Virus record (IMG/VR): IMGVR_UViG_3300032295_003392
Location: 1 to 64,000 of that record
From: a virus
Taxonomy: Duplodnaviria > Caudoviricetes
Length of the DNA: 64,000 nucleotides
Strand: one strand, 5' to 3'
Both the position numbers and the translations under genes were made by a program. The notes beneath the pieces are model-generated. The model did no database searches, had not been told where the DNA came from, and saw only the letters and a program-made list of their open reading frames with translations. This document shows, one piece after another, positions 3,085-53,971 of the stretch (the stretch's first letter is position 1; every line of letters starts with the position of its first letter).

Positions 3085-4203
3085 ATGAAAAAGATTGCCC
3101 TATGTCAAATTGTAAAAAATGAATCTCATGTCATAAAGAGATGTCTCGATTCAGTAAAAAGATTAATCGACTATGTTCTAATAGTTGATACAGGATCTAC
3201 CGACAATACAATAGAGACAATTCAAGAATGGTTAGCAGAAAACCAAATCGAGGGGGAGGTAATATCAGAACCTTGGAAAAACTTTGCCTATAACAGAACT
3301 TTCGCACTCAATAAGTTGATGGAAAAGGATTTTATTGATTATGCTCTGATGATAGATGCAGATGAAACACTTGTATTTGAGGATGGGTTCAACGCAGAGG
3401 ATTTCAAATCAAACTTGACAGACGAGATTTATAACGTCATAACAAATATGGGTGGGTCAACTTATGTAAGACCACAAATAACATCCAATAAAAAATCTTT
3501 CGAATATTGTGGTGTAGTTCATGAATTCTTAAGTTTATCAAATGCTGGGAGTATGGGGAGAGCATTTGGTTTTTTCAACTCACCTGTCCAAGATAGTAAC
3601 AGAAATATCAGTGGCAATAAGTTTTTACAAGATGCAAGTTTGCTCGAATCCGCAATAGCAGATGAACCAGATGGTTCTTGGATAAAATCAAGATACACAT
3701 TCTATCTAGCACAATCCTACAGAGATTCTGGACTTAAAGAAAAATCTTTAGAAAACTATCTAAAAAGAGCTGATATGGGTTATTGGAATGAAGAACAATA
3801 TATCAGTCTATATAATGCGGCAAATATTATGAAAGACCTTGGATATTCCAAAGGTGATGTGATTCAAACTTATATGAGAGCTATTGAACTTATCCCAACA
3901 AGAGCAGAAGCTTTCTATGGGTTTGTCAATTATTGTAGATTGAATGCACTCCATCAACAAGGTTATATGATTGGTAAATATGGAATAGATTTACAAATGC
4001 CTGGCGATGGTCTATTCTTGGAATCTTGGGTTTATGACTATGCTCTTCTAGATGAATTTTCAATAGTTGCCTTTTGGTCCAAAAACTATACAGAGTCAAG
4101 AGATGCTTGTATAAGATTACTCAATGGAAATAAATTGCCCGAACATTATGTAAACCGAATCAAAGAAAATTTACAATATTCTTTGGATAGACTCGGACAA
4201 TAA
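3085..4203 (+). CDS. Glycosyltransferase family 2 with C-terminal TPR repeats
   Basis: LCQIVKNE...IVDTGSTD, DADE (DxD), then TPR-like helices (RYTFYLAQSYRD, RAEAFY); start re-assigned to MKKIALC at 3085. Confidence 0.85.
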   Translation: MKKIALCQIVKNESHVIKRCLDSVKRLIDYVLIVDTGSTDNTIETIQEWLAENQIEGEVISEPWKNFAYNRTFALNKLMEKDFIDYALMIDADETLVFEDGFNAEDFKSNLTDEIYNVITNMGGSTYVRPQITSNKKSFEYCGVVHEFLSLSNAGSMGRAFGFFNSPVQDSNRNISGNKFLQDASLLESAIADEPDGSWIKSRYTFYLAQSYRDSGLKEKSLENYLKRADMGYWNEEQYISLYNAANIMKDLGYSKGDVIQTYMRAIELIPTRAEAFYGFVNYCRLNALHQQGYMIGKYGIDLQMPGDGLFLESWVYDYALLDEFSIVAFWSKNYTESRDACIRLLNGNKLPEHYVNRIKENLQYSLDRLGQ

Positions 4204-4213
4204 CTTATATTTG
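4182..4213 (+). promoter_or_regulatory. Bacteroidota housekeeping-sigma promoter
   Basis: TTTG-N20-TATATTTG, then 5 nt to the ATG at 4219. Confidence 0.8.
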
Positions 4214-4218
4214 CACTT

Positions 4219-5097
4219 ATGAAAATAAGTTCAGAATGCATTCTCCACAATATAAATACTTTGGACTCCGTTAAAAGGGATTTCCCCATTTTGATTAGTT
4301 ATGAAAATGAATCTGAGCCGTATAGAAAAAGACAACTATGGTCTGAGTGTAGTTTATATGGATTACAAAATTATACATCCTTCATAGATTTAATAAACAT
4401 CACTAAGGAGAATAACCAAGAGATTTTCTATAAGAAGAAAATTAAAATAAAAGATTTCCAAGAAATAGTCACAAACTGTGCCATAGACGAAAAGGTTAAA
4501 AAGTCTTTGAAATCCAAGGGTAAAATAAGTTTTGCTAAACTTATCAACAGTACTAAATGGGAAATCTACTCTGGTGATAATAATTATCGATTGAGAAAAA
4601 AATATGCGAACAACTTTTCTAAAGCCCAAGCAATCATTGCAAATTTTTGTATTCAAAATGGTGTAGAGATTGATTCCCCCACAAAAATAAATGAGTTTTA
4701 CACAACCAAACTCACACAAATAGACCCATCCATAAAACAAGAACTAGACTTAACAAATGAGGTTGTTGATTATATTGTCAATAAACTGTCAGAAAAAAAC
4801 TACGATTTTAAAAAACTCAATGTTGATGGTTTGAATAGATTGATAAGCGATAAACTATCCAAAAAAATAATCGATATAGACCAAGGTGAATCTGTAAAAC
4901 TTATTGATGAAAGTGAATTTCATAAACACTTAACTTTCGGAAAGGTTTATAACATTATCTCAAAAGACTTTCAAAGTGGTAGATTAACAATTCAAATAGA
5001 GAATGATTTGGGATTGACAAGACGTTACCCATATAGAATTTTTGAAACAGTTTCAAACTTGAGGAATAACGCAATCGATGATTTGCTTCAGTTATAA
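4219..5097 (+). CDS. Hypothetical protein with C-terminal SH3-like module and RxxxIxxLL tail
   Basis: 292-aa ORF; ends HLTFGKVYNII...YRIF...LRNNAIDDLLQL. Confidence 0.7.
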   Translation: MKISSECILHNINTLDSVKRDFPILISYENESEPYRKRQLWSECSLYGLQNYTSFIDLINITKENNQEIFYKKKIKIKDFQEIVTNCAIDEKVKKSLKSKGKISFAKLINSTKWEIYSGDNNYRLRKKYANNFSKAQAIIANFCIQNGVEIDSPTKINEFYTTKLTQIDPSIKQELDLTNEVVDYIVNKLSEKNYDFKKLNVDGLNRLISDKLSKKIIDIDQGESVKLIDESEFHKHLTFGKVYNIISKDFQSGRLTIQIENDLGLTRRYPYRIFETVSNLRNNAIDDLLQL

Positions 5098-5124
5098 AAT
5101 TATATATACTGAAAATAAAATTAT

Positions 5125-7074
5125 TTGATGCTTATTGAAACAATAGAAACGCAATCCACTAGTTTAAATCAGGTTTTAATAAAACAGTTCAGAAATCCCC
5201 ACTTTTACGAAGGAGATTTTATCAAAGGTTCGAAAGAACTAACAAAGAAGGTATCCACCACATTATTAACTGACCGTTGTTCGATTTGGTTATATAATCC
5301 TGATAAAACATCTATAATATGTCAACAACTTTATATACTTAAAGATGATTCTTGGGAACAAGGTTTGGAATTATTTGAAAAAGATTTTCCATCCTACTTT
5401 GAAATCCTCAAAACCAATCCTATAATAGTAGCAAATGATGCGCATACACATCCTGCGACATCTTGTTTCTCGGAAACCTACTTAAAACCACTCGGTATAA
5501 ATTCATTATTGGATGTACCTATCTATTATAAAGGTGATATAGTTGGTGTTATTTGTTTGGAGAACTTTGAGAAAAGGGAATGGAAAACAGATGAAATAGA
5601 ATTTGCAGAAATACTTTCTAATCTTTTATGTTTTGCACTTTATTCAAAAGAAAATTTGAATCAGAAAAACAAACTACAAGAAATCGAAAGGTTTATTGAC
5701 GAAGCCTCACTGGTTTCAAAAGCTGACAATAAGGGGAAAATAACCTATGTGAATAAAAAGTTCATGGATGTATCTGGATACACACTCGAAGAGGTTTTGG
5801 GTAAAGACCACAATCTTGTGAACTCCGGTACACATCCCAAGGAGTTTTGGAAAGAAATGTATAAAACTGTTTTACTTGATAGAGACATTTGGCACAGTGT
5901 AGTTACAAATAGAAAAAAGGATGGAACTTTATACTATGTAGACAGTTATATAAAAGCGGATTTCGATCCAGAGACAAAAAAACTCGAAGGTTATTTATCT
6001 ATTAGACAAGATGTCACTGAACTGAAAATAAAAGAAAATGAAATTAGAAATAGAATGGTCGCCATCAACAGATCCAATGCTGTAATTGAATTTGATTTGG
6101 ATGGTAAAATTATGTATGCTAATGAACTTTTTTGCAAATTAATGATGTATGAAGAAAAAGATATAGTAGGTAAACATCACTCCATCTTTTTAGATGATAC
6201 ATATAAAAATTCTCAAGAGTATAAAGATTTCTGGAAAAACCTGAGAGAGGGCAATTTCGCAACTGGAGAATTTTCTAGGTATAAATCCGATGGCGGTATT
6301 GTCTGGATACAATCTTCGTATAACCCTATTATTGGATATGATGGTAAAGCATATAAAATAATGAAGATTTGCCAAGACATAACAGATAAAGTATTACAAT
6401 CTCAAGAAATAGAAAAGAAAAATACTTATCTTGAACACGCTGCCAAAATTCTAAGACATGATATGCACTCAGGTATCAATACTTATATTCCAAGAGGTAT
6501 AACATCTTTGGGAAGAAGAATAACAGATGACGATATCAGAAACCTAAAAATAGAAGCCCCACTTAAAATGATTAAAGAAGGTTTGAGACATGCCCAAAAA
6601 GTTTATACAGGTGTATATGAATTCACAAATCTCGTTAAGAAAGATGCTTGTTTGACAAAGAAAGAATGTAATATTGGTGAAATATTAGACGATTACCTTT
6701 CTACCACCTCTTATAAATCTCAGGTTGAAATATCTGATAATCTACCGACACTAGAGGTGAACGAATCTTTGTTTTGCACATCATTAGATAACTTAATCAG
6801 AAATGGTTTAAAGTATAATGACAGCACAGTTAAGTTTGTAAAAGTGTATTTTGAGGAACCAAACTTGATTATCTTGGAAGATAACGGAAGAGGTATGTCG
6901 AATGAGGATTTTTTACATCTATCAAAACCTTATGTCAGAAAGGAAAATCAAGCTGAAACTGGTTCTGGCCTTGGACTAAATATATGTATAGCGATATTGA
7001 AAGAACATCAATTTGAAATATCTGCTGAAAAGTTACCAGAATGTGGTACTAAAATAAAAATTAAAGTTCATTAA
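5125..7074 (+). CDS. GAF-PAS-PAS sensor histidine kinase (soluble)
   Basis: GAF (RCSIWL...SLLDVPI...GVICLE), two PAS/PAC (ITYVNKKF...GYT...WHSVVTNRKKDG; IMYANELF...GEFSRYKSDGGIVW), H-box LRHDMHSG, N-box LDNLIRNGLKY, G1 EDNGRGM, G2 GSGLGL; TTG start. Confidence 0.92.
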   Translation: MMLIETIETQSTSLNQVLIKQFRNPHFYEGDFIKGSKELTKKVSTTLLTDRCSIWLYNPDKTSIICQQLYILKDDSWEQGLELFEKDFPSYFEILKTNPIIVANDAHTHPATSCFSETYLKPLGINSLLDVPIYYKGDIVGVICLENFEKREWKTDEIEFAEILSNLLCFALYSKENLNQKNKLQEIERFIDEASLVSKADNKGKITYVNKKFMDVSGYTLEEVLGKDHNLVNSGTHPKEFWKEMYKTVLLDRDIWHSVVTNRKKDGTLYYVDSYIKADFDPETKKLEGYLSIRQDVTELKIKENEIRNRMVAINRSNAVIEFDLDGKIMYANELFCKLMMYEEKDIVGKHHSIFLDDTYKNSQEYKDFWKNLREGNFATGEFSRYKSDGGIVWIQSSYNPIIGYDGKAYKIMKICQDITDKVLQSQEIEKKNTYLEHAAKILRHDMHSGINTYIPRGITSLGRRITDDDIRNLKIEAPLKMIKEGLRHAQKVYTGVYEFTNLVKKDACLTKKECNIGEILDDYLSTTSYKSQVEISDNLPTLEVNESLFCTSLDNLIRNGLKYNDSTVKFVKVYFEEPNLIILEDNGRGMSNEDFLHLSKPYVRKENQAETGSGLGLNICIAILKEHQFEISAEKLPECGTKIKIKVH

Positions 7075-8546
7075 TGATTGGAAGAATATTTTTACCGATT
7101 TTACTATTTTTATCTTTAAGTATAGTTGCACAAGATAGTTCAAAGATTTCCAAAGGAGTTGAATTTTTTGATAAGGGTGTAGTTGAGTCTGACGAAAGAA
7201 AGTTCTTAGCAGCTATATCAGATTACACGGAAGCCATCAAGATTAATCCAAAATATTCCGATGCTTATTTTTATCGTGGATGTGCACATTTTGAACTTGA
7301 AAACTATGAAAAATCAATAAAGGATTTCGATAAAGCAATAGCGGTAAATCCCTATTATGTAGATGCTTATTATTATAGAGGTCTAGCAAATGATAGACTC
7401 GCTGAGAAAGAAAAAAACAAAAATAAGATAAAGAAAATTGAACTACCAAGTGATTCTCTCTTAGACAAATCATTAAGCCCAAAAACTGCTAGATTCCTAC
7501 AAAATTTAAGTAAAGTTGACTATACAAAAATATCCAAAGCGGAGGCAAAAGAATATCTATCACAAATCGATAGTGAGTTACACAAATTGATGGAGGAAAG
7601 TGATTCCATATCAAAACTTGATAAACCAAATATAGTTCAGTTGGAAGCCAATAAAAGAGCTATAGAAACTCTTCAACACCAAAAAAGATTACAATCAACA
7701 ATAATCGAAAGAGAGGGATTCAAAGTCGAGGTTAACTTTTTACAAAAAGTTTTAATATGGGTTTCTATATTTATGGTTATAATGATAATCATCATTTCAC
7801 TAACTTGGAAAACTTTAAAACAGAAAAAACGTATCGAAAAATTAACAAAAGATGTAGAACAACAAATGAATGACATCGAAACCAAAAATGGATTTTTGGA
7901 ATATTCAGCTAGACTTATCCGACATGATATGCACTCTGGTATAAACACCTACATACCAAGGGGTCTTAGTTCACTAGAAAAGAAAATACCAGAGGATGTT
8001 ATACAAAATTTGAAGATTGAAACATCTCTCAAAATGATAAAGGATGGATTGAGTCACACGCAAAGAGTCTACAAAGAGGTATTTAACTTTTCCAATTTAG
8101 TTAAGAAAGATATTGTCTTAGAAAAGAAACTTTGTAATATAAAATTAATTTTAGAGAATCATATTGAAAACACCGCATACAAGTCAAAAGTCAATATTTC
8201 TGAAGATTTACCCGATTTACAAGTTAATGAAAATTTATTTTTACTAGCTATCGAACATTTTATCAAAAATGGACTGAAATATAACGATTCCGAGGAAAAA
8301 GTAGTAAAAATTTATATGGATAATGAATATATATGTGTAGAGGACAATGGTCGGGGAATGTCTCAAGAGGAATTTATCGAACTTGCTAAACCTTTCGCTA
8401 GAAAAGAAAATCAAACTGAAACTGGTGATGGGATAGGACTTACGATAAGTTTAGCAATACTCAAGGAACATGCGTTCACCGTGTCATCTGAAAAAACAAA
8501 ACCTAATGGTACAATAATAAAAATAAAAATATTTGAAAATGATTGA
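7074..8546 (+). CDS. Membrane histidine kinase with signal peptide and periplasmic TPR sensor
   Basis: Hydrophobic N-terminus, TPR repeats (AISDYTEAIKINP, AYFYRG, AYYYRG), TM helix VLIWVSIFMVIMIIIISLTW, H-box IRHDMHSG, EDNGRGM, GDGIGL; TAATG overlap with the upstream kinase. Confidence 0.9.
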   Translation: MIGRIFLPILLFLSLSIVAQDSSKISKGVEFFDKGVVESDERKFLAAISDYTEAIKINPKYSDAYFYRGCAHFELENYEKSIKDFDKAIAVNPYYVDAYYYRGLANDRLAEKEKNKNKIKKIELPSDSLLDKSLSPKTARFLQNLSKVDYTKISKAEAKEYLSQIDSELHKLMEESDSISKLDKPNIVQLEANKRAIETLQHQKRLQSTIIEREGFKVEVNFLQKVLIWVSIFMVIMIIIISLTWKTLKQKKRIEKLTKDVEQQMNDIETKNGFLEYSARLIRHDMHSGINTYIPRGLSSLEKKIPEDVIQNLKIETSLKMIKDGLSHTQRVYKEVFNFSNLVKKDIVLEKKLCNIKLILENHIENTAYKSKVNISEDLPDLQVNENLFLLAIEHFIKNGLKYNDSEEKVVKIYMDNEYICVEDNGRGMSQEEFIELAKPFARKENQTETGDGIGLTISLAILKEHAFTVSSEKTKPNGTIIKIKIFEND

Positions 8547-8970
8547 GTCAATTTTGTTGGTAGATGATGAGGATTTATTCCACTTAGTTTTTGAGGATGC
8601 TTGCTCACTCCTTGACATAACCCTCTCTTTACAGAGTTTAACTAATACAGACGAAACTGAAAAACTTTTTAAAGGATGGCAAAAAGATTCCGCCGGTAGA
8701 CCAGAATGTGTATTTGTGGATTTAAATATTATTGGTTCTTCCTTTGATGGTATCGAACTAATAAGGAAAATCAATTTTGATTATGGAAATAACGTTGTCA
8801 TTGGTATTATCTCTTCTTCAAATGAACCAGAAGAACAGTCAAGAGCAATGAAAGCTGGAGCTCAGTTCTGGATTATCAAATCCGATGAAATCGAACCAAG
8901 ACTTGAGGATTTTAGAAAAGACTACGAAGGATATAAGTCAAGAAAAGCCCCATTCAAAATTTATAAATAA
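8539..8970 (+). CDS. Stand-alone response-regulator receiver (CheY-like)
   Basis: ILLVDDE, phosphoacceptor VFVDLN...DGIELI, IISSS, conserved Lys in WIIKS; no output domain. Confidence 0.9.
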   Translation: MIESILLVDDEDLFHLVFEDACSLLDITLSLQSLTNTDETEKLFKGWQKDSAGRPECVFVDLNIIGSSFDGIELIRKINFDYGNNVVIGIISSSNEPEEQSRAMKAGAQFWIIKSDEIEPRLEDFRKDYEGYKSRKAPFKIYK

Positions 8971-8973
8971 TTT

Positions 8974-9624
8974 ATGATAGTTTTTGATTCCAAATCCAAA
9001 AAGCAACTAATTCAACTCCTAGACGAGAAAAAGATTTCAATCGAAGGAAATATCCTAAAACTCATCGACACAACAAACGATGAGTCATTCGAGAACTATG
9101 TTAAAACATCAATAGAAAAGGATAAGGAATCAAGAAGGAAAAGACTTGAGGTAACAAAACAAGTACAAGTTCAGAATAAAGAGTTACTCGAGAAAAAAAC
9201 GGAAATGGAGGATATTCAAAAGAATCTAGAAGAGTCTCTTGAAAAGTTACAAAAATCTATGGAAGAGGTGGAAGCTTCTAAAGAAGAATCCGAAAAGTCA
9301 AGACTTGAAGCAGAGTTAGCAAAAGAAGAAGCTGAACTAGCAAGACAAGAAGCTGAAAATGCTAAACTGAAAGTTGAAAGTGATTTGGACATTCTCCAAA
9401 GGAGAACTCAAAACGAACTTATCGGAACTATTGTAAAAGTAGCTTTGATGGTTATAGTTGGAGTTGGTATTGTAACAACTGGTGTTTACCTCCTAGCGAT
9501 ATTCACAGATAAGAACACCGAGGTTATTGCTTCCACTTGGGCAAACATCGTTGGTATCTTATTGACTAATGCTTTTAGTATTGTGGGAACTATTATGGGT
9601 GTTAAATACGCATCAGAGAAATAA
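8974..9624 (+). CDS. Coiled-coil protein with two C-terminal TM helices
   Basis: E/K-rich heptads (AELAKEEAELARQEAE), then VALMVIVGVGIVTTGVYLLAIF and WANIVGILLTNAFSIVGTIMGV. Confidence 0.75.
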   Translation: MIVFDSKSKKQLIQLLDEKKISIEGNILKLIDTTNDESFENYVKTSIEKDKESRRKRLEVTKQVQVQNKELLEKKTEMEDIQKNLEESLEKLQKSMEEVEASKEESEKSRLEAELAKEEAELARQEAENAKLKVESDLDILQRRTQNELIGTIVKVALMVIVGVGIVTTGVYLLAIFTDKNTEVIASTWANIVGILLTNAFSIVGTIMGVKYASEK

Positions 9625-10050
9625 TCAGATAAGTTTTTCTAACTTATGATTTCTATGTTGTGATTTAGATTTCTCTGAAATTTGTTCACAGATGGATTCA
9701 CATTCCTCAGTTACATACTCCATGTTTTTGTAAGTTCTATTGCTTGCATAAATCGATTGGTCAGTATAAAATGGTTGAAGGTCCTCATAATGAGCACAGT
9801 CAAATCCAATGACCCATTTGTCACCTTGTTCAGAAGCATAAGTTAATCCACCGTGACATCTTACAGGTATATTATCATAATCCTTTCCGAAGAAATCATT
9901 ATCGGTAGTTAAACTAACATAACCACAAAGATGACCAGCTCTTGTGTTTCTTATTATATTACATTCAAATTGTAAACCATTTTCACAGGTATAGACCCAT
10001 TCTTTTTTATTACCTTCTTTTTTAATTAGAGTTTCTAGCCAATTTTCCAT
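9625..10050 (-). CDS. Conserved-looking phage hypothetical protein
   Basis: GHLCGYV...HGGLTYA...WVIGFDCAH pattern familiar from phage proteins; C-terminal RNHKLEKLI. Confidence 0.7.
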   Translation of the reverse strand: MENWLETLIKKEGNKKEWVYTCENGLQFECNIIRNTRAGHLCGYVSLTTDNDFFGKDYDNIPVRCHGGLTYASEQGDKWVIGFDCAHYEDLQPFYTDQSIYASNRTYKNMEYVTEECESICEQISEKSKSQHRNHKLEKLI

Positions 10051-10062
10051 TTTAGTATTATT

Positions 10063-10269
10063 TTAATAATATTCAACAAATCTTTCTTTTCCATCCTCGG
10101 TTAACTTATTCCATTCTTCAAGAGGTCTCGAATAGTAAGAACCAAAATGTATGGATTGATAGGTGACCAATGTCTCACCAGTTTCAGTGTGTTTTGAAAG
10201 AAATAGGACAAGGTAAAGTCCACCTTTGTAATGTTTATAAACATGGTCGGGTGTGGGATATTTCATCAT
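10063..10269 (-). CDS. DUF1653-like protein
   Basis: YKHYKGGLYLV...HTETGETLVTYQ...RPLEEW signature. Confidence 0.8.
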   Translation of the reverse strand: MMKYPTPDHVYKHYKGGLYLVLFLSKHTETGETLVTYQSIHFGSYYSRPLEEWNKLTEDGKERFVEYY

Positions 10270-10484: not shown

Positions 10485-10493
10485 AATATTATG

Positions 10494-10564
10494 AGGTCCG
10501 TCCTGGAGTTGAACCAGGCTTGAAGGATTTGCAGTCCATCACATAACCGCTCTGACAACGGACC
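10494..10564 (-). tRNA. tRNA-Cys(GCA)
   Basis: Acceptor GGTCCGT/ACGGACC, anticodon loop CTGCAAA, T-arm CCTGG-TTCAACT-CCAGG, discriminator U; CCA not encoded. Confidence 0.93.
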
Positions 10565-10802: not shown

Positions 10803-10803
10803 G

Positions 10804-10874
10804 TAGCCCCAGGTTGACTCGAACAACCATTAAAACTTTAGAAGAGTCTTGTCCTTCCCTTGAACGATGGGGCC
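10804..10874 (-). tRNA. tRNA-Arg(UCU)
   Basis: Acceptor GGCCCCA/TGGGGCT, D-arm GTTC/GGAC, anticodon loop CTTCTAA, T-arm GGTTG-TTCGAGT-CAACC; CCA not encoded. Confidence 0.92.
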
Positions 10875-11541: not shown

Positions 11542-11572
11542 CAAATATAATCATTTAACTCGGATATTCAAA
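11542..11572 (-). promoter_or_regulatory. Bacteroidota housekeeping-sigma promoter
   Basis: TTTG-N19-TATATTTG-TTTA-ATG. Confidence 0.8.
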
Positions 11573-12021
11573 ATTTCAAACTCCATTTTTCCAATAGGCA
11601 CCTCAGCGATTACTTTCTCACCAACTCTTTTTCCCATAAGTGCACTACCGATAGGACTCAAATGTGAAATTTTACCAGATTTAATATCGATTTCATTCTC
11701 TGGTACAATCCTGTATTCAATCTCTACACCACTCTTAGTATTTTTAAACTTTACCCAAGTGAGTAGTTGAACTGTACCATCATCAATAATTCCTTCGAGG
11801 ATTTCAGCATCAGCCAATCTCTGTGAAAGATTATTAATCTTCCTATTTAAATCATCAAGTGCGGTTTTTGCCACATCATATTCTGCATTTTCAGATAAAT
11901 CTCCCTTATCTTTTGCTTCTGCTAAGTTTTGGATATGTTCCCTCAGTTGGGGACCTCTCATATCTCTTAGTTCTTGTTCTAGTTTTTGAAACCCCTCTCG
12001 GGTCATAGGTATTCTTGCCAT
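11551..12021 (-). CDS. greA: Transcription elongation factor GreA
   Basis: MTREGFQKLEQEL, catalytic GDLSENAEY, C-terminal ISHLSPIGSALMGKRVGE; start re-assigned to MARIP at 12021. Confidence 0.95.
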   Translation of the reverse strand: MARIPMTREGFQKLEQELRDMRGPQLREHIQNLAEAKDKGDLSENAEYDVAKTALDDLNRKINNLSQRLADAEILEGIIDDGTVQLLTWVKFKNTKSGVEIEYRIVPENEIDIKSGKISHLSPIGSALMGKRVGEKVIAEVPIGKMEFEILNIRVK

Positions 12022-12081
12022 AATATTTTTTATTTTCAATTTCAGTTATATTTATCTAAATCTAAAAGTTGGTTTATTTTT

Positions 12082-13144: not shown

Positions 13145-14371
13145 ATGGCAAAAGAAAAGAAAGAAAGTGGCTCAAAAAAGTTCGAATTCAGTAAGGTTGG
13201 TTCACTAATGAACAACATTGCAAAAACTGTACCGATTATTATTGATAACCAAATCAAAGAAAAAAAGTTTATCTCAACTGGTGTTTACCTATTGGATGCA
13301 GCACTATCATCAAGACTTTTAAACGGTGGTGTTCAAACAAACAGAATCACTTGTTTTGCTGGTGAATCTGGTACTGGTAAATCCTTTCTCGCCTACTCCG
13401 TGGCTAAGAACGCGCAGAAAGCTGGCTATGGAATCGTATATGTAGATACTGAGTACTCAGTTGAACTTGATGAAATTAATAAGTTTGGTATCGATCCAGA
13501 CCCCGAAAAGTTCATTCTTATCAGGTCAAATAAAGTTGAGGATATCAATATTACACTATCCCAACTCCTTGATAATCTTAAAGAAGAAAAGATTAAGGGT
13601 AGTGAAATTCAACCACTTATGATTGTTCTAGATTCAATCGGACAGATGGCATCTAACAAAGAAAAGGCTGACTTGTTGAAAGGTGATATCAAACAAGATA
13701 TGACCAAAGCAAAAGCTATTGGTTCTTTATTTAGGTCTATCAACTCTGACTTAGGGTTCTTAGAAATCCCAATGATTGTATGTAACCACACCTATCTTAC
13801 TCAGGATTTATTTCCACAAGAGGTATTGAAAGGTGGAAGGTCACTTGTTTACTCAGCATCAGTTATCGGTATGATGTCAAAATCAAAACTCAAAACTGGT
13901 GAGGAAGATGATATGGATTTGGGACAATCTGGTATTTCCGTATTATTCAAGACTGCTAAGAATCGTTTGGCCAAACCAAAAAAAATCCGTTTTGACATTT
14001 CATTCAACCATGGTATGAACCCATATACTGGACTCGATGCTTTTTGTAGACCAGAATATTTCGACCAAATAGGTATCGCTCAAGGTAAGGCTGAGGTTGA
14101 TAAAAAGACTGGTGAGATGACATTTACACCAGGTGGTATCAGATGGTATATTTCACATTTGGATAAGTCAGTTACAACTAAGAACTTATTCACAAGTGAG
14201 GTTTTCACACCTGAGGTTTTGAAGAAAATGGAACCCATTGTGAATGATTATTTCAAATACAAATCATTAGATGAAATTGAAGATTTACAAAAGGACTTTG
14301 ATAACATGGCTGATGGTGACGATACCAACGGATTTTCTGACAATATTTCTGCTGAAGATTTGTTTGACTAA
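13145..14371 (+). CDS. uvsX: UvsX/RecA-like recombinase
   Basis: Walker A GESGTGKS, YVDTE, Walker B MIVLDSIG, CNHTY, GGRSLVYSAS; acidic C-tail as in T4-type UvsX. Confidence 0.9.
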   Translation: MAKEKKESGSKKFEFSKVGSLMNNIAKTVPIIIDNQIKEKKFISTGVYLLDAALSSRLLNGGVQTNRITCFAGESGTGKSFLAYSVAKNAQKAGYGIVYVDTEYSVELDEINKFGIDPDPEKFILIRSNKVEDINITLSQLLDNLKEEKIKGSEIQPLMIVLDSIGQMASNKEKADLLKGDIKQDMTKAKAIGSLFRSINSDLGFLEIPMIVCNHTYLTQDLFPQEVLKGGRSLVYSASVIGMMSKSKLKTGEEDDMDLGQSGISVLFKTAKNRLAKPKKIRFDISFNHGMNPYTGLDAFCRPEYFDQIGIAQGKAEVDKKTGEMTFTPGGIRWYISHLDKSVTTKNLFTSEVFTPEVLKKMEPIVNDYFKYKSLDEIEDLQKDFDNMADGDDTNGFSDNISAEDLFD

Positions 14372-14390
14372 AAAATCCTTTGTATATTTG
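14359..14390 (+). promoter_or_regulatory. Bacteroidota housekeeping-sigma promoter
   Basis: TTTG-N20-TATATTTG-TCAG-ATG. Confidence 0.8.
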
Positions 14391-19382: not shown

Positions 19383-20120
19383 ATGGATATTAAGGAACAT
19401 TTAGATAAAAATCTTTATGGTATCCTTGGTGTATCAAAGGATGCTACACTCAAAGAAATAAAAAAGGCTTATTACTCTTTGAGCAAGGTCTACCATCCTG
19501 ACGCTAATAAAGAATCAGACCCATTAATATTTAATGAAATAACTATTGCTTACGACATTCTCAGTAATGAGGATAGAGAAGAGTGGGATAGGAAGAGTAA
19601 ATGGGGTAAGGACTATGATGAATCCCAAGAGCTATTAGATTTTGAATTTGACACCTTGAAGAAAGGGTGGGATCCGGATATCTATGAGAACTGGAAAAGT
19701 GAAAACCAGTTAAATATACTTTTATATGTCGATAAAGATTTCAAAGGAAAAGTTGAATACGAAAGATATGTGAGTTGTAAGACCTGTTCTGGTAGTGGAA
19801 AAGATTTAGATTCCAAAATAACTATCAGAGATGATGCAGGCAATGTTCTAAAAATATTTGAGGGTACTGATGGGTGTGACTTTTGCGAAGGTACTGGTAA
19901 AAGTTGGATAGGTCAAGATTGTAGTTTTTGTGGTGGGAAAGGAAAAGTTGGTAATGAAGATTGTAAAACCTGCAATGGTGAAAAAAGGATTCTTGGGAAA
20001 CAAAAACTAAAAGGAATCAAAATAAAAAAGGGCGAAGAAGCTCACCAAGTCAAATTCATGGGAAATGTATCCAAGGAAGATAAGGATATATTCGGAGACC
20101 TATGGGTTATTCTTCGCTGA
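19383..20120 (+). CDS. dnaJ: DnaJ-like co-chaperone (J domain plus zinc finger, truncated C-terminus)
   Basis: HPD motif; CKTCSGSG, CDFCEGTG, CSFCGGKG, CKTCNGEK; ends FGDLWVIL. Confidence 0.88.
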   Translation: MDIKEHLDKNLYGILGVSKDATLKEIKKAYYSLSKVYHPDANKESDPLIFNEITIAYDILSNEDREEWDRKSKWGKDYDESQELLDFEFDTLKKGWDPDIYENWKSENQLNILLYVDKDFKGKVEYERYVSCKTCSGSGKDLDSKITIRDDAGNVLKIFEGTDGCDFCEGTGKSWIGQDCSFCGGKGKVGNEDCKTCNGEKRILGKQKLKGIKIKKGEEAHQVKFMGNVSKEDKDIFGDLWVILR

Positions 20121-27413: not shown

Positions 27414-28532
27414 TTATTTCGGAACCTTATTAAATTCTTCTTTGTCATTCGATATATAAAAGTTATCGAATAAGAAATATTTATCATATATCTCTCTTAT
27501 TTTATCGAGAGTGACTGTATCAATTATCTCTTTTACATTCCAACCTTTTGGCTGTATCCACCTATTTACATTTGTATATCTGTTTATCTTATCTTTCTCT
27601 AATTTAATGAGATAAGAATTTTTAATAGTATCAAATCTTTCTTTTGTTAAGAATTTGTCAGGGTTTTTAATAACATATTTAGTAGCATCAACAAGTTTAT
27701 CAACATTTTGTGTAGTTGTTTGTGTTGTAATACTAGTAAATCCTTGATTATTAAATCTTGACTGACCACACCTCACATAATAAACCAAACCACGTTTCTC
27801 TCTGAGCTCAACGTATAGTGGAGAAGACAAACCAAGAGACAACATAGAGTTAATAAAAGTTATGTAATGGTTATCCTCTTGAATGAGAGGGGCTGTCATT
27901 ATTAAAGATACTTTATCACCATAGTCAGGTCTTTTTTCCAATATGACATCATTGTGAGGACCCATATTTAAAATTCTATCAAAAGTTAGTTCATTGAACT
28001 CCCCATCATATCTGAATGCGTTTTTTGGAGAGACATTTATTATTTTTGATGGTTTTGAAAATTGTTTCTCAAAAAAATCCAAACCATCCATAAATCTCAT
28101 TGATTCCAAATCCTGTCTTAACCCAATCGCATCATAGTTTTGATAAAGTTTTCTTAATAAATTCAATAAGTGTGATTCAGTTTGGTCACTAAAATAGTCA
28201 CCATATTCCTGCATAACAATCTTTTTTTCATTTTCGAATTGTTCCTTTGTGATGTTAAACTCACTCATCAAATCCATTATCTCATACTTTCTTTTGCTTA
28301 GATAATCATCCAGACCAGTGAAATAAAACACTATCTCATTTTGAGATGTATAAGCATTCCATTCAATGCCTTCTTTTTCGAAAGTCTCTCTGAGATGTTC
28401 AAAGTTTTTACACATCAAATGTTCCATAAGATGAGATATACCATATATACCCCTATCTTCAAGTAAAGTAGAACCACTATAAACTATGTAAAAACCAGAA
28501 AGATTTGTTTGACTCTTTAAGTTTACAACCAT
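27414..28532 (-). CDS. M16 (insulinase-family) zinc peptidase
   Basis: GISHLMEH inverted HxxEH, WNAYTS, EKKIVMQE, LYVELREKRGLVY. Confidence 0.9.
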   Translation of the reverse strand: MVVNLKSQTNLSGFYIVYSGSTLLEDRGIYGISHLMEHLMCKNFEHLRETFEKEGIEWNAYTSQNEIVFYFTGLDDYLSKRKYEIMDLMSEFNITKEQFENEKKIVMQEYGDYFSDQTESHLLNLLRKLYQNYDAIGLRQDLESMRFMDGLDFFEKQFSKPSKIINVSPKNAFRYDGEFNELTFDRILNMGPHNDVILEKRPDYGDKVSLIMTAPLIQEDNHYITFINSMLSLGLSSPLYVELREKRGLVYYVRCGQSRFNNQGFTSITTQTTTQNVDKLVDATKYVIKNPDKFLTKERFDTIKNSYLIKLEKDKINRYTNVNRWIQPKGWNVKEIIDTVTLDKIREIYDKYFLFDNFYISNDKEEFNKVPK

Positions 28533-30899: not shown

Positions 30900-30927
30900 A
30901 AAAGGGGGTTTAAAACCCCCTTTTTTT
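30898..30927. terminator. Bidirectional intrinsic terminator
   Basis: A-run, GGGGGTTTAAAACCCCC, T-run between convergent genes. Confidence 0.85.
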
Positions 30928-32020
30928 ATGCTACACTCAAGAATATTTTTCTTGCTGACCTATCGACAGCGATGACTTTAACCTTGACCTCTTGACCAGA
31001 TACTATTTTCTGGTTGGTTTTATCAATTTCAGATGTGTGAATCAAAGCATTTGTTTCTTCATCCAAAGATACAAGAGCCCCAAAGGGTTTGATATCCTTA
31101 ACTTTACCACTTAGGATCTGACCAACTTTGATAGTATCCCAAAGAGTCTCTCTCAGAATTTGTGTGAGAATAATCTTATCCCTGATGATTTCCTTGATGA
31201 AGAACTCAATAGTCATACCAGGTGTAATCTCACTAATTTGAATACCACTGTTTGGGTTCATATTGGTTTTGTGAATCATACCAGTCAAACATTCATTGAA
31301 CTCAACAAATACACCGAACTCAGTGGTCCCAGTTACTTGTCCAACATAAATCTTTCCATGTTCAAGTGCTCTGATTGATTGTGGGATAAGACTTTGTAGA
31401 TACTTTCTACGACTTACAATATAAGTTCCCTCTTCCCTAGAATAAGACTCAATCATCACATCGAATGTCTGACCAATGATAGATTCTGGTTTTGCTAGTT
31501 TATTAATACCAGCGAGTGTATTTGGCATAAACCCTGGTAAACTCACACCCTCAAACTGAATGTCTACAGAATATCCTGCTGGTGTTGATTCTCTAACATA
31601 ACAAACAACCGCTGAACCTTCTTCGAGTTCTGTAAGATTTTTCCTAGCGATTCCCTCATAGAGTTCAACAAAACTAGCTTTGATAAAAAAGTCATCTTCG
31701 TTGATTTCCGTGATGAAAACATCTAATTGTTCACCAATCTCAGTGTTCTTTAAATAAGCAGCCTCACTCGGTTTATTTTCGATTCTAACAAAATCTTTGA
31801 ACCCTCCATCAAAAATAAAATAGTTTTGAGAGATACCCAAATATAAAACCTTTGTCATTTGACCGGCCTGTGGTGGTGTTACCTCATACTGGTCATAAAG
31901 TGATTGTAGTTCTTCCCTTTCCCTTTCTGTCTTTTTTAACTTTTCGAGTGTTTCAACATCGTTTGCGAATAATTCAGGATATAAATACCTGACATCACCA
32001 TATACTTTCTTTTTTCCCAT
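30926..32020 (-). CDS. rpsA: Ribosomal protein bS1-like (about four S1 domains)
   Basis: S1 repeats including GSAVVCYVRESTPAGYSVD...GFMP, GKIYVGQVTGTTEFGVFVEF...GMIH, GQILSGKVKDIKPFGALVSL...ALIH. Confidence 0.85.
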   Translation of the reverse strand: MGKKKVYGDVRYLYPELFANDVETLEKLKKTEREREELQSLYDQYEVTPPQAGQMTKVLYLGISQNYFIFDGGFKDFVRIENKPSEAAYLKNTEIGEQLDVFITEINEDDFFIKASFVELYEGIARKNLTELEEGSAVVCYVRESTPAGYSVDIQFEGVSLPGFMPNTLAGINKLAKPESIIGQTFDVMIESYSREEGTYIVSRRKYLQSLIPQSIRALEHGKIYVGQVTGTTEFGVFVEFNECLTGMIHKTNMNPNSGIQISEITPGMTIEFFIKEIIRDKIILTQILRETLWDTIKVGQILSGKVKDIKPFGALVSLDEETNALIHTSEIDKTNQKIVSGQEVKVKVIAVDRSARKIFLSVA

Positions 32021-42792: not shown

Positions 42793-43401
42793 ATGTTCAT
42801 GTCTAACACAATCAAATCATTCTCTGACCACGAAACGTATTTCAAGGAGAGAACCGGAAATGACTTCTCATTCTTCTATAAGAAGTATTACCCAAAACTA
42901 ATCTACTACACTTCAAAAATGTGTGGTGACCAACAAAAAGCCGAAGATATCACAACCGAATCCTTCATGACGGCTTTCGAAAAAATTGACAAGTATGAAA
43001 AAGAAAAAGCACAGTTTTCAACTTGGTTATTTACTATCGCTAGGAACATAGTTCTACAAGACATCAAATCTTCCAAGAAAACCATATCAATCGATACAGA
43101 ATATGATGAAGATGGAACAACCTTGAAAGACTTTATCCAAGAGGACCAGCATGAAAGCAGTATCTTTGAACTCAGTGAGAAAAAAGCTGAAATAATGAAG
43201 GACCAAATTTCCAAACTCAAAGACCCTTATAAAAAGGTCATTGAAATGAGGGAACTTAAAAAAATGTCTTATAAAGACATAGCTGATGAACTAGGTAAGA
43301 ACCTCTCTACTGTCAAAAGTCAAATACGAAATGGTAGGTTAATATTGATTAACAAAACCAAAAAAGATTTTGATATATTAGATGAAACATATCTAAATTA
43401 A
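42793..43401 (+). CDS. ECF-type (sigma-70 family group 4) RNA polymerase sigma factor
   Basis: Region 2 AEDITTESF...FSTWLFTIARN; region 4 MSYKDIADELGKNLSTVKSQIRNGR. Confidence 0.92.
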   Translation: MFMSNTIKSFSDHETYFKERTGNDFSFFYKKYYPKLIYYTSKMCGDQQKAEDITTESFMTAFEKIDKYEKEKAQFSTWLFTIARNIVLQDIKSSKKTISIDTEYDEDGTTLKDFIQEDQHESSIFELSEKKAEIMKDQISKLKDPYKKVIEMRELKKMSYKDIADELGKNLSTVKSQIRNGRLILINKTKKDFDILDETYLN

Positions 43402-51853: not shown

Positions 51854-53971
51854 ATGACTAACGAATTTAATAATATTTCTGATGAAAAACCAGAGTTATT
51901 GAATGTAAAGATGGCGATTTCTGACGACGATGATGATGAAGCAAGAAACTCCTCAAAAGCAAATAAAGGTCAAGAGGTAAAATCCAAAACACCAGTTTTA
52001 GATAGTTTCTCAAAAGACTTAACTAAAATGGCAGTGGAGGGCAAACTCGATCCAATAATCGGTAGAGAAAAGGAAATCGAAAGAGTTTCACAGATATTAG
52101 CAAGGAGGAAAAAGAACAACCCACTATTGATTGGTGAACCAGGTACCGGTAAAAGCTCAATAGCCGAAGGATTGGCACAAAGGATTGTTGAGAGGAAATG
52201 TTCTAGGATACTATTTAATAAAAGAATTGTTATTCTAGACTTAGCGTCAATGGTCGCTGGAACAAAATATAGAGGACAGTTCGAGGAAAGAATTAAAGCT
52301 TTGATGCAAGAGGTTGAAAAGGAACCAGATGTTATCCTATTTATTGACGAAATCCACACCATCATTGGTGCAGGAGGTTCCAGTGGAACACTCGATGCAT
52401 CAAATATGTTTAAACCTGCACTTGCAAGAGGGGAAATCCAATTGATTGGAGCAACTACACTTGATGAATATAGAAAACACATAGAAAAGGATGGTGCATT
52501 AGAAAGAAGATTCCAAAAAGTAATTATCGAACCTGCTACAGAGGAAGAAACAATGCAGATTCTTAATCAGGTAAAAGATAAATATGAATCACATCATAAT
52601 GTAGTATTTACCGAAGAGGCTATACAAGCTTGTGTCGATTTAACATCTAGATTTATGACAGATAGATTTCTTCCTGATAAAGCACTTGATGCTTTGGATG
52701 AATCTGGTTCTAGAGTACATATTGCTAACATCGTAGTTCCAAAGGAAATTATCGATATTGAAACTAAGATTTCCGAAGTTAAAGAACAAAAAACATTAGT
52801 TGTTAGAGGACAAAGATATGAAGAGGCAGCTCGTCTCAGAGATGTAGAAAAACAACTACATAATAATCTAGAGGACGCCAGAAAGAAATGGGATGAAGAC
52901 CAAAAGAACAATAAACAGACCGTTACGGAGGATAATGTAGCAGAAGTCGTATCTATGATGACTGGTATCCCACTCCAAAAAGTAGGACAAAAAGAGTCCC
53001 AAAAACTCTCCAATATGTCGAAAGAAATTATGGGGAAAGTCATTGGACAAGATAAAGCTGTTGAGTCTGTAATCAAATCAATCCAAAGAGGTAGAGTAGG
53101 ACTGAAAGACCCCAATAGACCAATCGGTACATTCCTTTTCCTTGGACCAACAGGAGTCGGCAAAACTCAACTCTGTAAGATATTAGCAAAATATTTGTTC
53201 GATTCAGAGGACTCTTTAATCAGAGTTGATATGAGTGAATTTATGGAAAAGTTTGCGGTATCTAGACTTATTGGAGCACCGCCGGGATATGTAGGTCATG
53301 ATGAAGGTGGTCAGTTGACTGAAAAGGTTAGAAGAAAACCATATTCTGTAATTCTATTAGATGAAGTTGAAAAAGCACACTCGGAGGTGTTTAACATTCT
53401 GTTACAGGTACTTGATGATGGACAACTTACTGATTCTGTAGGTAGAAAAGTAAGTTTCAAAAATACAGTTATTATAATGACATCTAATACCGGTTCAAGA
53501 CAACTCAAAGATTTTGGAACAGGTATCGGATTCTCTACAAAAAACAAAGAAGAACAGAAGAGAGACCAAGAGAAAGATGTTATTGAAAAAGAGTTGAAGA
53601 AAACATTTGCACCAGAGTTTCTCAATAGAATTGATGAAATCATTACTTTTAACTCTTTGAACAAGGAAGATATAATGAAAATTGTCGATATTGAATTTGA
53701 GAAAGTCCTCGAGAGAATTAGAACAATGGAATTTGAACTTGAGATAACTGAAACTGCCAAAGAATACATTTCAGAAAAAGGATACGATCCTGAATATGGA
53801 GCAAGACCACTAAAAAGGGCAATCCAAAGATATATCGAGGACCCAATCACAGAAGAAATAATCCAATCCAATCCAAAGAAGGGAACTAAAATGTGTTTGG
53901 ACTATGATAAGGAACAAGATTCAATGGTTGTAACCCAAACAAAGGAAAAAAAGACTAAAAAGAAAATTTAA
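51854..53971 (+). CDS. clpC: ClpC-type AAA+ unfoldase lacking the N-terminal Clp-repeat domain
   Basis: GEPGTGKS, LFIDE, KYRG pore loop, UVR middle domain, GPTGVGKT, GYVG, ILLDE, IGF loop (GTGIGF). Confidence 0.92.
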   Translation: MTNEFNNISDEKPELLNVKMAISDDDDDEARNSSKANKGQEVKSKTPVLDSFSKDLTKMAVEGKLDPIIGREKEIERVSQILARRKKNNPLLIGEPGTGKSSIAEGLAQRIVERKCSRILFNKRIVILDLASMVAGTKYRGQFEERIKALMQEVEKEPDVILFIDEIHTIIGAGGSSGTLDASNMFKPALARGEIQLIGATTLDEYRKHIEKDGALERRFQKVIIEPATEEETMQILNQVKDKYESHHNVVFTEEAIQACVDLTSRFMTDRFLPDKALDALDESGSRVHIANIVVPKEIIDIETKISEVKEQKTLVVRGQRYEEAARLRDVEKQLHNNLEDARKKWDEDQKNNKQTVTEDNVAEVVSMMTGIPLQKVGQKESQKLSNMSKEIMGKVIGQDKAVESVIKSIQRGRVGLKDPNRPIGTFLFLGPTGVGKTQLCKILAKYLFDSEDSLIRVDMSEFMEKFAVSRLIGAPPGYVGHDEGGQLTEKVRRKPYSVILLDEVEKAHSEVFNILLQVLDDGQLTDSVGRKVSFKNTVIIMTSNTGSRQLKDFGTGIGFSTKNKEEQKRDQEKDVIEKELKKTFAPEFLNRIDEIITFNSLNKEDIMKIVDIEFEKVLERIRTMEFELEITETAKEYISEKGYDPEYGARPLKRAIQRYIEDPITEEIIQSNPKKGTKMCLDYDKEQDSMVVTQTKEKKTKKKI

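Follow-up and report, generated by a model that had tools for sequence, protein, structure and literature searches.

A predicted histidine kinase-receiver relay coupled to a phage-only membrane protein in T4-like jumbo phages, with a possible role in lysis

Gene content of the locus

The analysed stretch of 64,000 nucleotides, called the window in the following, stems from an IMG/VR virus record with a completeness rating of 18%. The whole 72.7-kb record is a fragment of an uncultured, T4-like jumbo phage with a genome of roughly 300-400 kb, whose host probably belongs to the Bacteroidota. The window encodes UvsX and SbcC, contains many host-type promoters, and includes an operon which a preliminary description, made from the sequence alone, had read as four tightly coupled genes. 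This layout is borne out, with all four open reading frames on the plus strand between 5128 and 9624. The operon and the features in front of it are as follows.

4182..4213, + strand: Bacteroidota-type host promoter motif TTTG-N20-TAnnTTTG, found by pattern search, ending 5 nt before the ATG at 4219
4219..5097, + strand: orf292, a protein of 292 aa without Pfam match, 30 nt upstream of HK1
5128..7074, + strand: HK1, soluble sensor histidine kinase of lineage A, 648 aa (Pfam GAF, PAS, HATPase_c)
7074..8546, + strand: HK2, membrane sensor histidine kinase of lineage B, 490 aa (Pfam TPR_1/TPR_11, HATPase_c)
8539..8970, + strand: stand-alone receiver, 143 aa (Pfam Response_reg)
8974..9624, + strand: coiled-coil 2-TM protein, 216 aa, of a phage-only family without Pfam match

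The HK1 reading frame, which ends at 7074, could start at 5125 or 5128, the ATG at 5128 (648 aa) being the likelier start. For the receiver, with possible starts at 8533 and 8539 and its end at 8970, the ATG at 8539 was chosen because nearly all relatives have 143 residues. HK1 and HK2 are joined by a TAATG, HK2 and the receiver gene overlap by 8 nt, and the gap between the receiver gene and that of the coiled-coil 2-TM protein is 3 nt.

A TATATATAC motif at 5101 had been suggested to precede the operon in place of a host-type promoter. The motif is present but not enriched above chance (two copies versus 0.95 expected, with 28 of 100 shuffles reaching two). It could not be upheld as a T4-type late promoter either: TATAAATA is two-fold enriched in the window, yet has no copy upstream of HK1, and TATATATA is unenriched (2 copies versus 3.6 expected). 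The claim that a host-type promoter is missing had to be given up, given the Bacteroidota-type motif one gene upstream of HK1, at 4182-4213. The pattern TTTG-N20-TAnnTTTG is found 13 times in the window compared to 2.4 expected copies, a number that none of 100 shuffles reached. From its position, the copy at 4182-4213 is likely the promoter of a unit comprising orf292, HK1, HK2, the receiver and the 2-TM protein, and no terminator-like site was found between 4000 and 10200. Orf292 is probably co-transcribed with HK1. It lies outside the conserved module, and in none of 80 related loci does it adjoin the triad of kinase, receiver and membrane protein genes.

Two sensor kinases from two old lineages

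HK1 consists of a GAF domain (about residues 36-171), two PAS domains (about residues 190-420), a DHp domain and a HATPase_c domain with N, G1 and G2 boxes, and does not contain any hydrophobic segment. HK2 has hydrophobic segments at residues 1-20, representing a signal peptide or anchor, and at about residues 218-240 (a transmembrane segment, nt 7725-7793), a periplasmic TPR domain (residues 29-116), and a HATPase_c domain. The domain content agrees with the earlier suggestion that HK1 would be built for cytoplasmic input through GAF-PAS-PAS, and HK2 for periplasmic input through its signal peptide, TPR and transmembrane parts. HK1 is soluble and therefore a tractable kinase for biochemistry.

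The H-boxes are located at nt 6454-6498 in HK1 (His444, nt 6457-6459) and at nt 7920-7964 in HK2 (His284). As described before, both kinases share the identical string RHDMHSGINTYIPRG, after which HK1 has ITSL and HK2 LSSL, and both contain EDNGRGM and RKENQxETG. The N, G1 and G2 boxes (NGLKYN, DNGRGM, and G[SD]G[LI]GL) could be located in both, and the catalytic domains match Pfam HATPase_c at 44.7 and 44.4 bits (cut-off 26.4). Across the family the H-box reads LEHAAKI[IL]RHDMHSGIN, with an invariant His followed by Asp as in DHp phospho-acceptor sites, and it hardly varies among at least 77 family representatives. It had been called atypical, which is correct in so far as it is a divergent HisKA, but it does not define a new class and grades into the ordinary SHDLKxPxR kinases. 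Pfam HisKA matches neither kinase at an E-value of 0.01 or better, and the DHp-CA region can be aligned over its full length with the solved kinase 8f71_A (query residues 4-217, E 8.6e-7).

The DHp-CA cores of the two kinases share 56% identity over 238 aa (E 2e-88), a similarity that had been attributed to a duplication within the lineage of this phage. The duplication is old, however, and the tree places the kinases in two old, clade-wide lineages, the HK1 core in lineage A (support 98/93) and the HK2 core on a long branch in lineage B. The periplasmic kinase lineage is optional across the clade.

A canonical receiver without output domain

The receiver contains all expected residues, namely the acidic pair D9/D10, the acceptor D61 (nt 8719-8721), S92-S94, and K114. 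Response_reg is its sole Pfam match (35.2 bits, cut-off 30.2), and the nearest solved structures are ordinary receivers of the CheY, NarL and Rcp types. The D/D/D/S/K residues are invariant in close relatives, and D10, D61, S94 and K114 are still invariant in relatives of 27-46% identity. The invariant Asp61 is part of the VFVDLN string that had been proposed to hold the phospho-acceptor. The C-terminal tail, ending with PFKIYK, is conserved as well. With H-box, N, G1 and G2 boxes and receiver residues intact, the operon appears to encode a complete and functional kinase-receiver set, as judged from its sequence. Because the receiver does not have an output domain, it must act by protein binding.

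Complete genomes encode a single receiver and one or two kinases, and natural kinase-receiver fusions exist, one of them on a 190-kb contig. Along with the adjacency of the genes, the single receiver and the fusions lend indirect support to a putative phosphotransfer from the kinase His to the receiver Asp. One locus, on a 116-kb contig that is 49% complete, encodes the receiver and the membrane protein but no kinase on the contig, so that a phage kinase may not be the source of the input in every case.

A membrane protein found only in phages

The fourth gene encodes a protein with a small N-terminal domain (residues 1-36) and one long helix (residues 37-178) running into the first transmembrane segment (TM1, nt 9412-9501; TM2, nt 9532-9597). 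The transmembrane hairpin is strongly conserved, TM2 having an invariant small/polar face with a GxxxG motif, and the coiled coil differs in length between relatives as if it were a spacer. The family comprises 5,883 clusters and is phage-only. The AlphaFold models have pLDDT values of up to 86 for the whole protein and 94 for the N-terminal domain, and Foldseek did not find a match in the PDB for either the whole protein or the N-terminal domain alone. In a wide fold search with VIA-align, the best match among those listed had a Z-score of 5.6, no better than noise where helical models are concerned. A two-segment hairpin may be expected of a holin or antiholin, but with 216 residues and a cytoplasmic part of 145 residues the protein is unlike a typical small holin, and it does not match any holin family in Pfam. 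A role as HPt- or Spo0B-like phosphorelay intermediate was considered and rejected because the alignments of the membrane protein do not contain any invariant or near-invariant His.

Distribution and conservation of the triad

The triad is restricted to phages and was found on more than 500 IMG/VR contigs, its proteins forming thousands of clusters. Among 50,697 deposited phage records, searched at the DNA and protein levels, neither the operon nor the receiver nor the membrane protein has a relative, and the kinase core obtained generic weak matches only. The triad is kept in nearly all of 80 close loci, is present in every complete clade genome examined, and also surrounds five kinase relatives of only 30-37% identity, one of which adjoins Gp23. 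At least three of these five distant triads have retained the hallmarks of the third gene of the triad, that for the membrane protein. In 39 of 45 distinct loci, the stop of the receiver gene shares 1 or 4 nt with the start of the membrane protein gene. The receiver has the highest mean pairwise identity (87.5%), followed by the kinase core (77.7%), the transmembrane hairpin (69.6%) and the sensor region (49.8%). Sensor domains are freely swapped between relatives, and the receiver is almost frozen. A fusion of receiver and membrane protein was not found among the longer proteins searched.

Lysis genes in the neighbourhood of the triad

An endolysin combining PG_binding_1 and GH19 domains is encoded within four genes of the triad in 25 of 65 distinct loci, a proportion that overstates the number of independent associations because related loci are not phylogenetically independent. 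Such an endolysin directly adjoins the triad in one complete genome, a second complete genome has a GH19-like gene at a distance of 4-5 kb, and a third complete relative does not have any GH19 match. Other wall hydrolases were found in similar positions: an Amidase_2 endolysin is encoded 19 nt upstream of the receiver at one locus, and a GH46 gene is located two genes downstream of a distant triad. A holin-like protein of 174 residues is encoded immediately after the triad in 17 loci. A T4-type holin T was not detected in the complete relatives of the clade. No endolysin was found in the whole 72.7-kb record, from which GH19, the PG_binding_1 domain and the holin-like protein are all absent. 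In the window, where the module itself is intact, there is no endolysin or holin-like gene near the triad, and the module is adjoined by a GT2 glycosyltransferase. In the relatives, the gene neighbourhoods, together with the conserved coupling, lend comparative support to the idea of lysis timing that had been raised before.

A proposed relay and its alternatives

We favour, with moderate confidence, a reading in which the operon encodes a self-contained two-component relay that is owned by the phage and whose receiver would act on the coupled membrane protein, most likely to tune lysis. HK1 and HK2 would autophosphorylate, the site being the His in the conserved H-box RHDMHSGIN, with HK1 reading a cytoplasmic signal via its GAF and two PAS domains and HK2 a periplasmic one via its TPR domain. 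Both kinases would phosphorylate the single receiver at Asp61, and the receiver would then act by binding a protein. The most likely target would be the translationally coupled coiled-coil protein with its hairpin in the inner membrane. In this way, the relay could set the time at which the membrane is opened for lysis, or decide if such a lesion arises at all, similar to a holin/antiholin-type control fed by signals on the state of the host. Lysis tuning is considered the most likely use because the triad is located inside or beside lysis genes in many relatives. Given that thousands of related phages keep the set, often beside lysis genes, the relay probably senses the host state and may time lysis. 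That phosphate is transferred, that the receiver binds the membrane protein and that lysis is affected is what we infer from these comparisons. A more detailed version is put forward tentatively, in which cytoplasmic and periplasmic kinases converge on the one receiver to time lysis, and the phosphorylated receiver binds the N-terminal domain of the membrane protein and toggles it between a lesion-forming and a lesion-blocking state.

The relay might also be aimed at the host, with the phosphorylated receiver binding a conserved host protein or the kinases cross-talking with host regulators, and the membrane protein serving as anchor or scaffold only. This would fit the receiver being the most conserved part, as expected under constraint from an invariant host partner, and the lack of lysis genes near the triad in the window. 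Single-domain receivers like CheY and DivK are also known to act on targets that are not encoded next to them. However, the translational coupling of receiver and membrane protein genes persists across very distant triads, and the near-invariant, divergent H-box and helix 1 of the receiver seem to resemble an insulated cognate pair more than one adapted to partners in the host. We regard a host target as unlikely.

It is rather improbable, in our view, that the membrane protein has an output other than lysis timing, such as superinfection exclusion, envelope remodelling, or membrane anchoring of a phage structure, in response to envelope or energy signals. The conserved hairpin with its invariant polar/small face, the spacer-like coiled coil, the TPR-based periplasmic sensing of one kinase, and the GT2 glycosyltransferase adjoining the module in the window could all be reconciled with such a role, but wall hydrolases of three unrelated classes and a holin-like gene are repeatedly found beside the triad in relatives, a pattern that is difficult to account for if the triad had nothing to do with lysis. 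It is very doubtful that the membrane protein is a ToxR- or CadC-like membrane-tethered regulator, whose N-terminal domain would bind DNA under control of the receiver. In that domain, a strand and two helices precede a basic RRKRL patch, and an RHH_1 cluster is among the weak structure matches in the Atlas (TM 0.25 by query and 0.40 by hit), but neither RHH nor any other DNA-binding fold is among the 50 fold matches listed (best Z 5.6), and the protein has no DNA-binding Pfam domain.

That a host two-component operon was recently captured, or that the contig is cellular, is hardly credible: the kinase and receiver domains are bacterial in type according to Pfam and the triad turned up in five MAG bins, its only occurrences among 185,579 species genomes, but these five mis-binned contigs are assigned to five different phyla, the neighbours checked on the two longest match phage-only PHROGs (E down to 4e-130), the receiver family is in no isolate genome among these species, every examined kinase relative has a phage context down to 30% identity, the closest ESM Atlas clusters of the membrane protein are 94-100% viral, and the window of this viral record has UvsX, SbcC and many host-type promoters. 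Gp23 was not found in the five bins, which is uninformative since they hold only phage fragments. The kinase relatives examined lie in phages and not in ordinary Bacteroidota chromosomal operons, and the viral origin assumed in the preliminary description is further supported by the T4-type Gp23 capsid gene in the complete relatives (294-322 kb). Based on these sequence comparisons, the operon is not a recent acquisition from cells, and the relay would belong to the phage.

Phage decisions are known to be based on small-molecule or peptide cues, as in arbitrium and host quorum signals, and on antiholins. If the output of the favoured relay were lysis timing, large lytic phages would process the energy, redox or envelope state of the host before burst. 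The swappable sensors, periplasmic ones with TPR or other domains included, would let each phage choose its cue, and synthetic biology would obtain a compact relay that is likely insulated from host systems.

Comparison with known systems

In staphylococci and bacilli, LytSR together with the holin-like and antiholin-like CidAB/LrgAB controls murein-hydrolase access and cell lysis. The phage operon is similar in tying a sensor kinase and a response regulator to membrane proteins, a likeness for which no homology was detected or is claimed. LytSR is cellular and has a transcriptional output via the LytTR DNA-binding domain, whereas the phage receiver has Response_reg only, and its sensors are of GAF-PAS or TPR type instead of the multi-TM LytS type. 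The phage membrane protein, with its large cytoplasmic coiled coil, is unrelated to the CidAB/LrgAB family.

In T4 lysis inhibition, the antiholins RI and RIII act on the holin T by direct binding. The proposed likeness consists in the T4-type phage, the partly periplasmic sensing, and the protein-protein control of lysis timing at the inner membrane, and phosphorelay lysis timing, if true, would be a functional analogue built from two-component parts. The sequences are unrelated, no holin T was detected in the complete relatives, and in contrast to antiholin-holin binding the phage relay would interpose a His-Asp phosphotransfer and could combine cytoplasmic and periplasmic inputs.

As in the CheA-CheY-FliM and DivJ/PleC-DivK pathways, one or more kinases would feed a receiver that stands alone, has the canonical Asp, Ser/Thr and Lys and acts by protein binding. 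The phage kinases are of HisKA type and not of CheA type, and unlike in the CheY and DivK pathways the receiver is presumed to act on the product of the neighbouring gene, a membrane protein found only in phages. The pathway would be wholly viral.

The published literature searched contains no description of this system and no example of a virus that owns a complete His-Asp relay together with a dedicated, non-transcriptional output at the membrane. A survey of jumbo phages mentions only a different, kinase-independent type of receiver (PMC7824862). A sensor histidine kinase in a phage genome is known from phiCDHM1, whose agr cassette consists of agrB, agrD and the kinase gene agrC but does not include a response regulator. 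The cassette genes share 60-70% similarity with their counterparts in the host, and a host regulator is presumed to receive the signal (PMC4124054). Compared to phiCDHM1, the relay described here is complete, does not have close cellular relatives, and is conserved over a deep phage lineage.

Composition of the operon and chemistry of the relay

Four co-oriented ORFs are found at 5125-9624 of the window (ORF listing), and their Pfam domains and tight junctions bear out the four-gene operon of two kinases, a receiver, and a 2-TM protein that had been proposed in the preliminary description. The junctions are, in order, TAATG, an 8-nt overlap, and a 3-nt gap. The gene products are:

HK1, soluble sensor kinase, start most likely the ATG at 5128; Pfam GAF, two PAS domains, and HATPase_c
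HK2, sensor kinase with signal peptide; Pfam TPR repeats and HATPase_c; hydrophobic stretches over residues 1-20 and roughly 218-240
Receiver, start ATG at 8539, 143 aa; Pfam Response_reg alone
Fourth protein, coiled-coil membrane protein; no Pfam family

The receiver start was set to the ATG at 8539 because relatives show the length of 143 aa. The two kinases are 56% identical across the 238 aa of the DHp and catalytic domains, share the identical string RHDMHSGINTYIPRG, and both contain NGLKYN, DNGRGM, and G2 boxes, in agreement with the common H-box and similar catalytic domain noticed before. The H-box had also been regarded as atypical. It is near-invariant across the family and is a divergent HisKA, because in the most distant matches it passes gradually into the ordinary SHDLKxP[LIV]R motif, accompanied by an NG[IL]KYN N-box, and because the kinase core (DHp-CA) could be aligned over its full length with a solved kinase. 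The Pfam HisKA model scores below threshold on these kinases.

The receiver has kept D9/D10, D61, S92-94, and K114, of which D10, D61, S94, and K114 are invariant even at 27-46% identity, and among solved structures it is closest to ordinary receivers of the CheY, NarL, and Rcp types. Each complete genome encodes a single receiver together with one or two kinases. The pairing is supported by natural in-frame kinase-receiver fusions, one of which is located on a 190-kb contig. Kinases and receiver look functional and cognate. Comparing the parts of the module with each other points to a relay core that is frozen while sensor inputs are exchanged.

Mean pairwise identity of module parts across 45 distinct loci
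Receiver: 87.5%
Kinase core: 77.7%
Fourth protein, TM hairpin: 69.6%
Fourth protein, full length: 61.7%
Sensor regions: 49.8%

Two kinase lineages

The similarity of the kinases had been attributed to a duplication within the lineage of this phage. This is contradicted by a maximum-likelihood tree of 44 kinase cores, in which two old lineages are resolved with support of 98/93 for each. Lineage A (31 cores, including HK1) comprises the sole or upstream kinases of the loci, which have soluble or short 2-TM sensors. The 13 cores of lineage B, among them HK2 on a long branch, belong with few exceptions to downstream kinases that have a periplasmic domain and a single TM segment. Because the cores fall into two supported lineages across loci, the duplication is, on this tree, older than the split between these phages. 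Many loci do not have lineage B, which is therefore optional. In several two-kinase loci a secreted or anchored protein of roughly 200 aa is inserted between the kinases (e.g. L004:6033-6665, L002:5961-6566, and L011:1572-2189 on related contigs), which is without counterpart in the window. A hydrophobic segment is present at the N-terminus of most of these proteins, and no Pfam family matches the one that was scanned. They may be periplasmic accessories of the lineage-B kinase.

The membrane protein

In AlphaFold models (pLDDT up to 86 at full length and up to 94 for the N-domain), the fourth protein consists of a small N-terminal domain (a strand and helices 6-19 and 26-30), a single helix 37-178 that turns into TM1, and a TM2 helix at 183-207. 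The coiled-coil middle differs in length among relatives, and TM2 carries an invariant small/polar face (T198, N199, S202, G205, T206, and G209). Fold searches with this protein gave no convincing match, and its nearest ESM Atlas clusters are 94-100% viral. A role as HPt-like intermediate was rejected because the alignments of the fourth protein contain no invariant His. Receiver and membrane protein are the constant core of the module, because the pair is kept at L073:8004-9177 on a 116-kb contig (49% complete) that does not encode a family kinase anywhere. A metallophosphatase gene is located upstream of this pair on the opposite strand.

Distribution of the triad

IMG/VR contains 527 relatives of the receiver; the best 80 are 77-84% identical and located on contigs of up to 322 kb. 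In a collection of 5.8 billion proteins, the receiver family comprises 3,860 clusters and the family of the fourth protein 5,883. A tblastn and ORF survey of 80 loci revealed the order kinase(s), receiver, membrane protein (the triad) wherever the contig is long enough; the genes flanking the module in the window are not kept beside it in these loci. When the HK2 core was used in an exhaustive HMMER search, a distinct family emerged (77 representatives at E<1e-30), diverse in length and sensor architecture, with a nearly invariant H-box. Five kinase relatives at only 30-37% identity are all followed by a receiver-size gene (140-162 aa) and a gene of 180-206 aa, and one of these distant triads is located directly after the Gp23 gene on a 132-kb contig. 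The third gene of the three distant loci covered in full has kept the EGxxLKxI motif, the coiled coil, and hydrophobic C-terminal segments.

Deposited phage genomes contain no relatives of the receiver or the membrane protein and only generic weak matches to the kinase core. Scanning 185,579 species genomes resulted in six loci only, each on a MAG contig, with assignments to five phyla, and five of the six contain the whole triad (L096-L100: WBXG01000047.1, JBBAUR010000009.1, CANIVF010000058.1, JBDHKD010000078.1, and RFQS01000281.1, binned as Verrucomicrobia, Bdellovibrionota, Bacteroidetes, Gemmatimonadota, and Proteobacteria, respectively). On the two longest MAG contigs the neighbours checked match phage-only PHROGs (lowest E 4e-130), one of them a virion structural protein. 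The triad-bearing contigs are almost certainly binning errors, that is, mis-binned phage fragments. Ordinary cellular operons and a cellular contig, two outcomes that would have counted against the preliminary description, were therefore not observed. Judged by these searches, the triad is widespread and phage-only.

Viral contig, host, and transcription

The IMG/VR virus record whose first 64 kb make up the window measures 72.7 kb and has a CheckV completeness of 18%. Three related records of 294-322 kb (91-100% complete) contain the T4-type Gp23 capsid gene. The contig is viral. Its proteins include UvsX-like and SbcC-like proteins and an unusually rich set of host-like proteins for gene expression and proteostasis:

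11551-12039, minus strand, GreA
19383-20120, plus strand, DnaJ
27414-28532, minus strand, M16 peptidase
30926-32020, minus strand, S1-domain protein
42793-43401, plus strand, ECF-type sigma factor
51854-53971, plus strand, large AAA+ ATP-dependent protease

The Bacteroidota promoter pattern TTTG-N18-20-TAnnTTTG is present in 13 copies in the window compared to 2.4 expected, and this excess suggests a Bacteroidota host. The sites span 3024-50171 (e.g. 4182-4213, 11542-11572, and 14359-14390), and their 3' ends are usually a few bases ahead of a start codon, which suggests that leaders are short or absent. At 4182-4213, one copy stops 5 nt short of the ATG of orf292 (292 aa), whose end is 30 nt from the HK1 ATG, and there are no terminator-like sites within 4000-10200. 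Therefore, orf292, HK1, HK2, receiver, and membrane protein are probably one transcription unit read by the host RNA polymerase. From a promoter of host type, expression would be expected early or in the middle of infection. The TATATATAC motif reported at 5101 ahead of the operon is present, but its frequency is not above chance. A T4 late-promoter-like TATAAATA is located at 8962-8969 within the last codons of the receiver (IYK-stop), 4 nt before the ATG of the membrane protein. This motif is about two-fold enriched (25 copies in the window, 12 expected), with most copies inside ORFs. The module is bordered by a GT2 glycosyltransferase and an unknown ORF on one side, and by small genes and two tRNAs on the other. 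The latter, tRNA-Cys(GCA) at 10493-10564 and tRNA-Arg(TCT) at 10803-10874, both on the minus strand, are located among small ORFs just downstream.

Lysis genes near the triad

When the four genes on either side of the triad were clustered, the commonest neighbour was a PG_binding_1 and Glyco_hydro_19 protein, found at varying positions and on both strands in 25 of 65 distinct loci, which are related so that the counts are not independent. In the complete genome G003 this gene adjoins the triad, in G001 a GH19-like gene is 4-5 kb off, and G002 has no GH19 match. A different endolysin (PG_binding_1 and Amidase_2) ends 19 nt before the receiver in L047. In the distant locus L082 the triad is followed by a caspase-like Peptidase_C14 gene (3952-4917) and then a GH46 gene. 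In 17 loci the gene directly after the triad encodes a holin-like 174-aa protein without Pfam family, in which a TM segment is combined with another hydrophobic stretch and a proline-rich, acidic tail. T4-type holins were not detected in the clade. GH19, PG_binding_1 domains, and the 174-aa protein are all missing from the 72.7-kb record of the window itself. That three unrelated wall-hydrolase classes adjoin the triad argues for a functional tie to lysis over inherited synteny alone.

Proposed function and comparison with known systems

In the mechanism that we propose, a cytoplasmic and a periplasmic kinase would feed one receiver, which would bind the adjacent membrane protein, and the likely purpose of such a phage-owned relay would be the tuning of lysis. 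Sequence and comparison make it very probable that the kinase and receiver chemistry is intact and owned by the phage. In 39 of the 45 distinct loci, the stop codon of the receiver and the start of the fourth gene share 1 or 4 nt, and this coupling makes it somewhat favoured that the receiver acts on the membrane protein, the alternative being a host protein as target. A role in lysis timing is a tentative reading that draws on the gene context in relatives, and a different function at the membrane, for example exclusion or remodelling of the envelope, could be served instead. A membrane-tethered DNA-binding role is a further alternative.

The sole published phage-borne kinase that we located, in phiCDHM1, is without regulator and resembles host genes (PMC4124054), and the sole receiver type mentioned in a survey of jumbo phages is a kinase-independent variant (PMC7824862). 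The nearest functional analogues of the triad are LytSR with CidAB/LrgAB, T4 lysis inhibition, and the single-domain receiver pathways of CheY and DivK, whose homology to the triad is confined to generic kinase and receiver domains.
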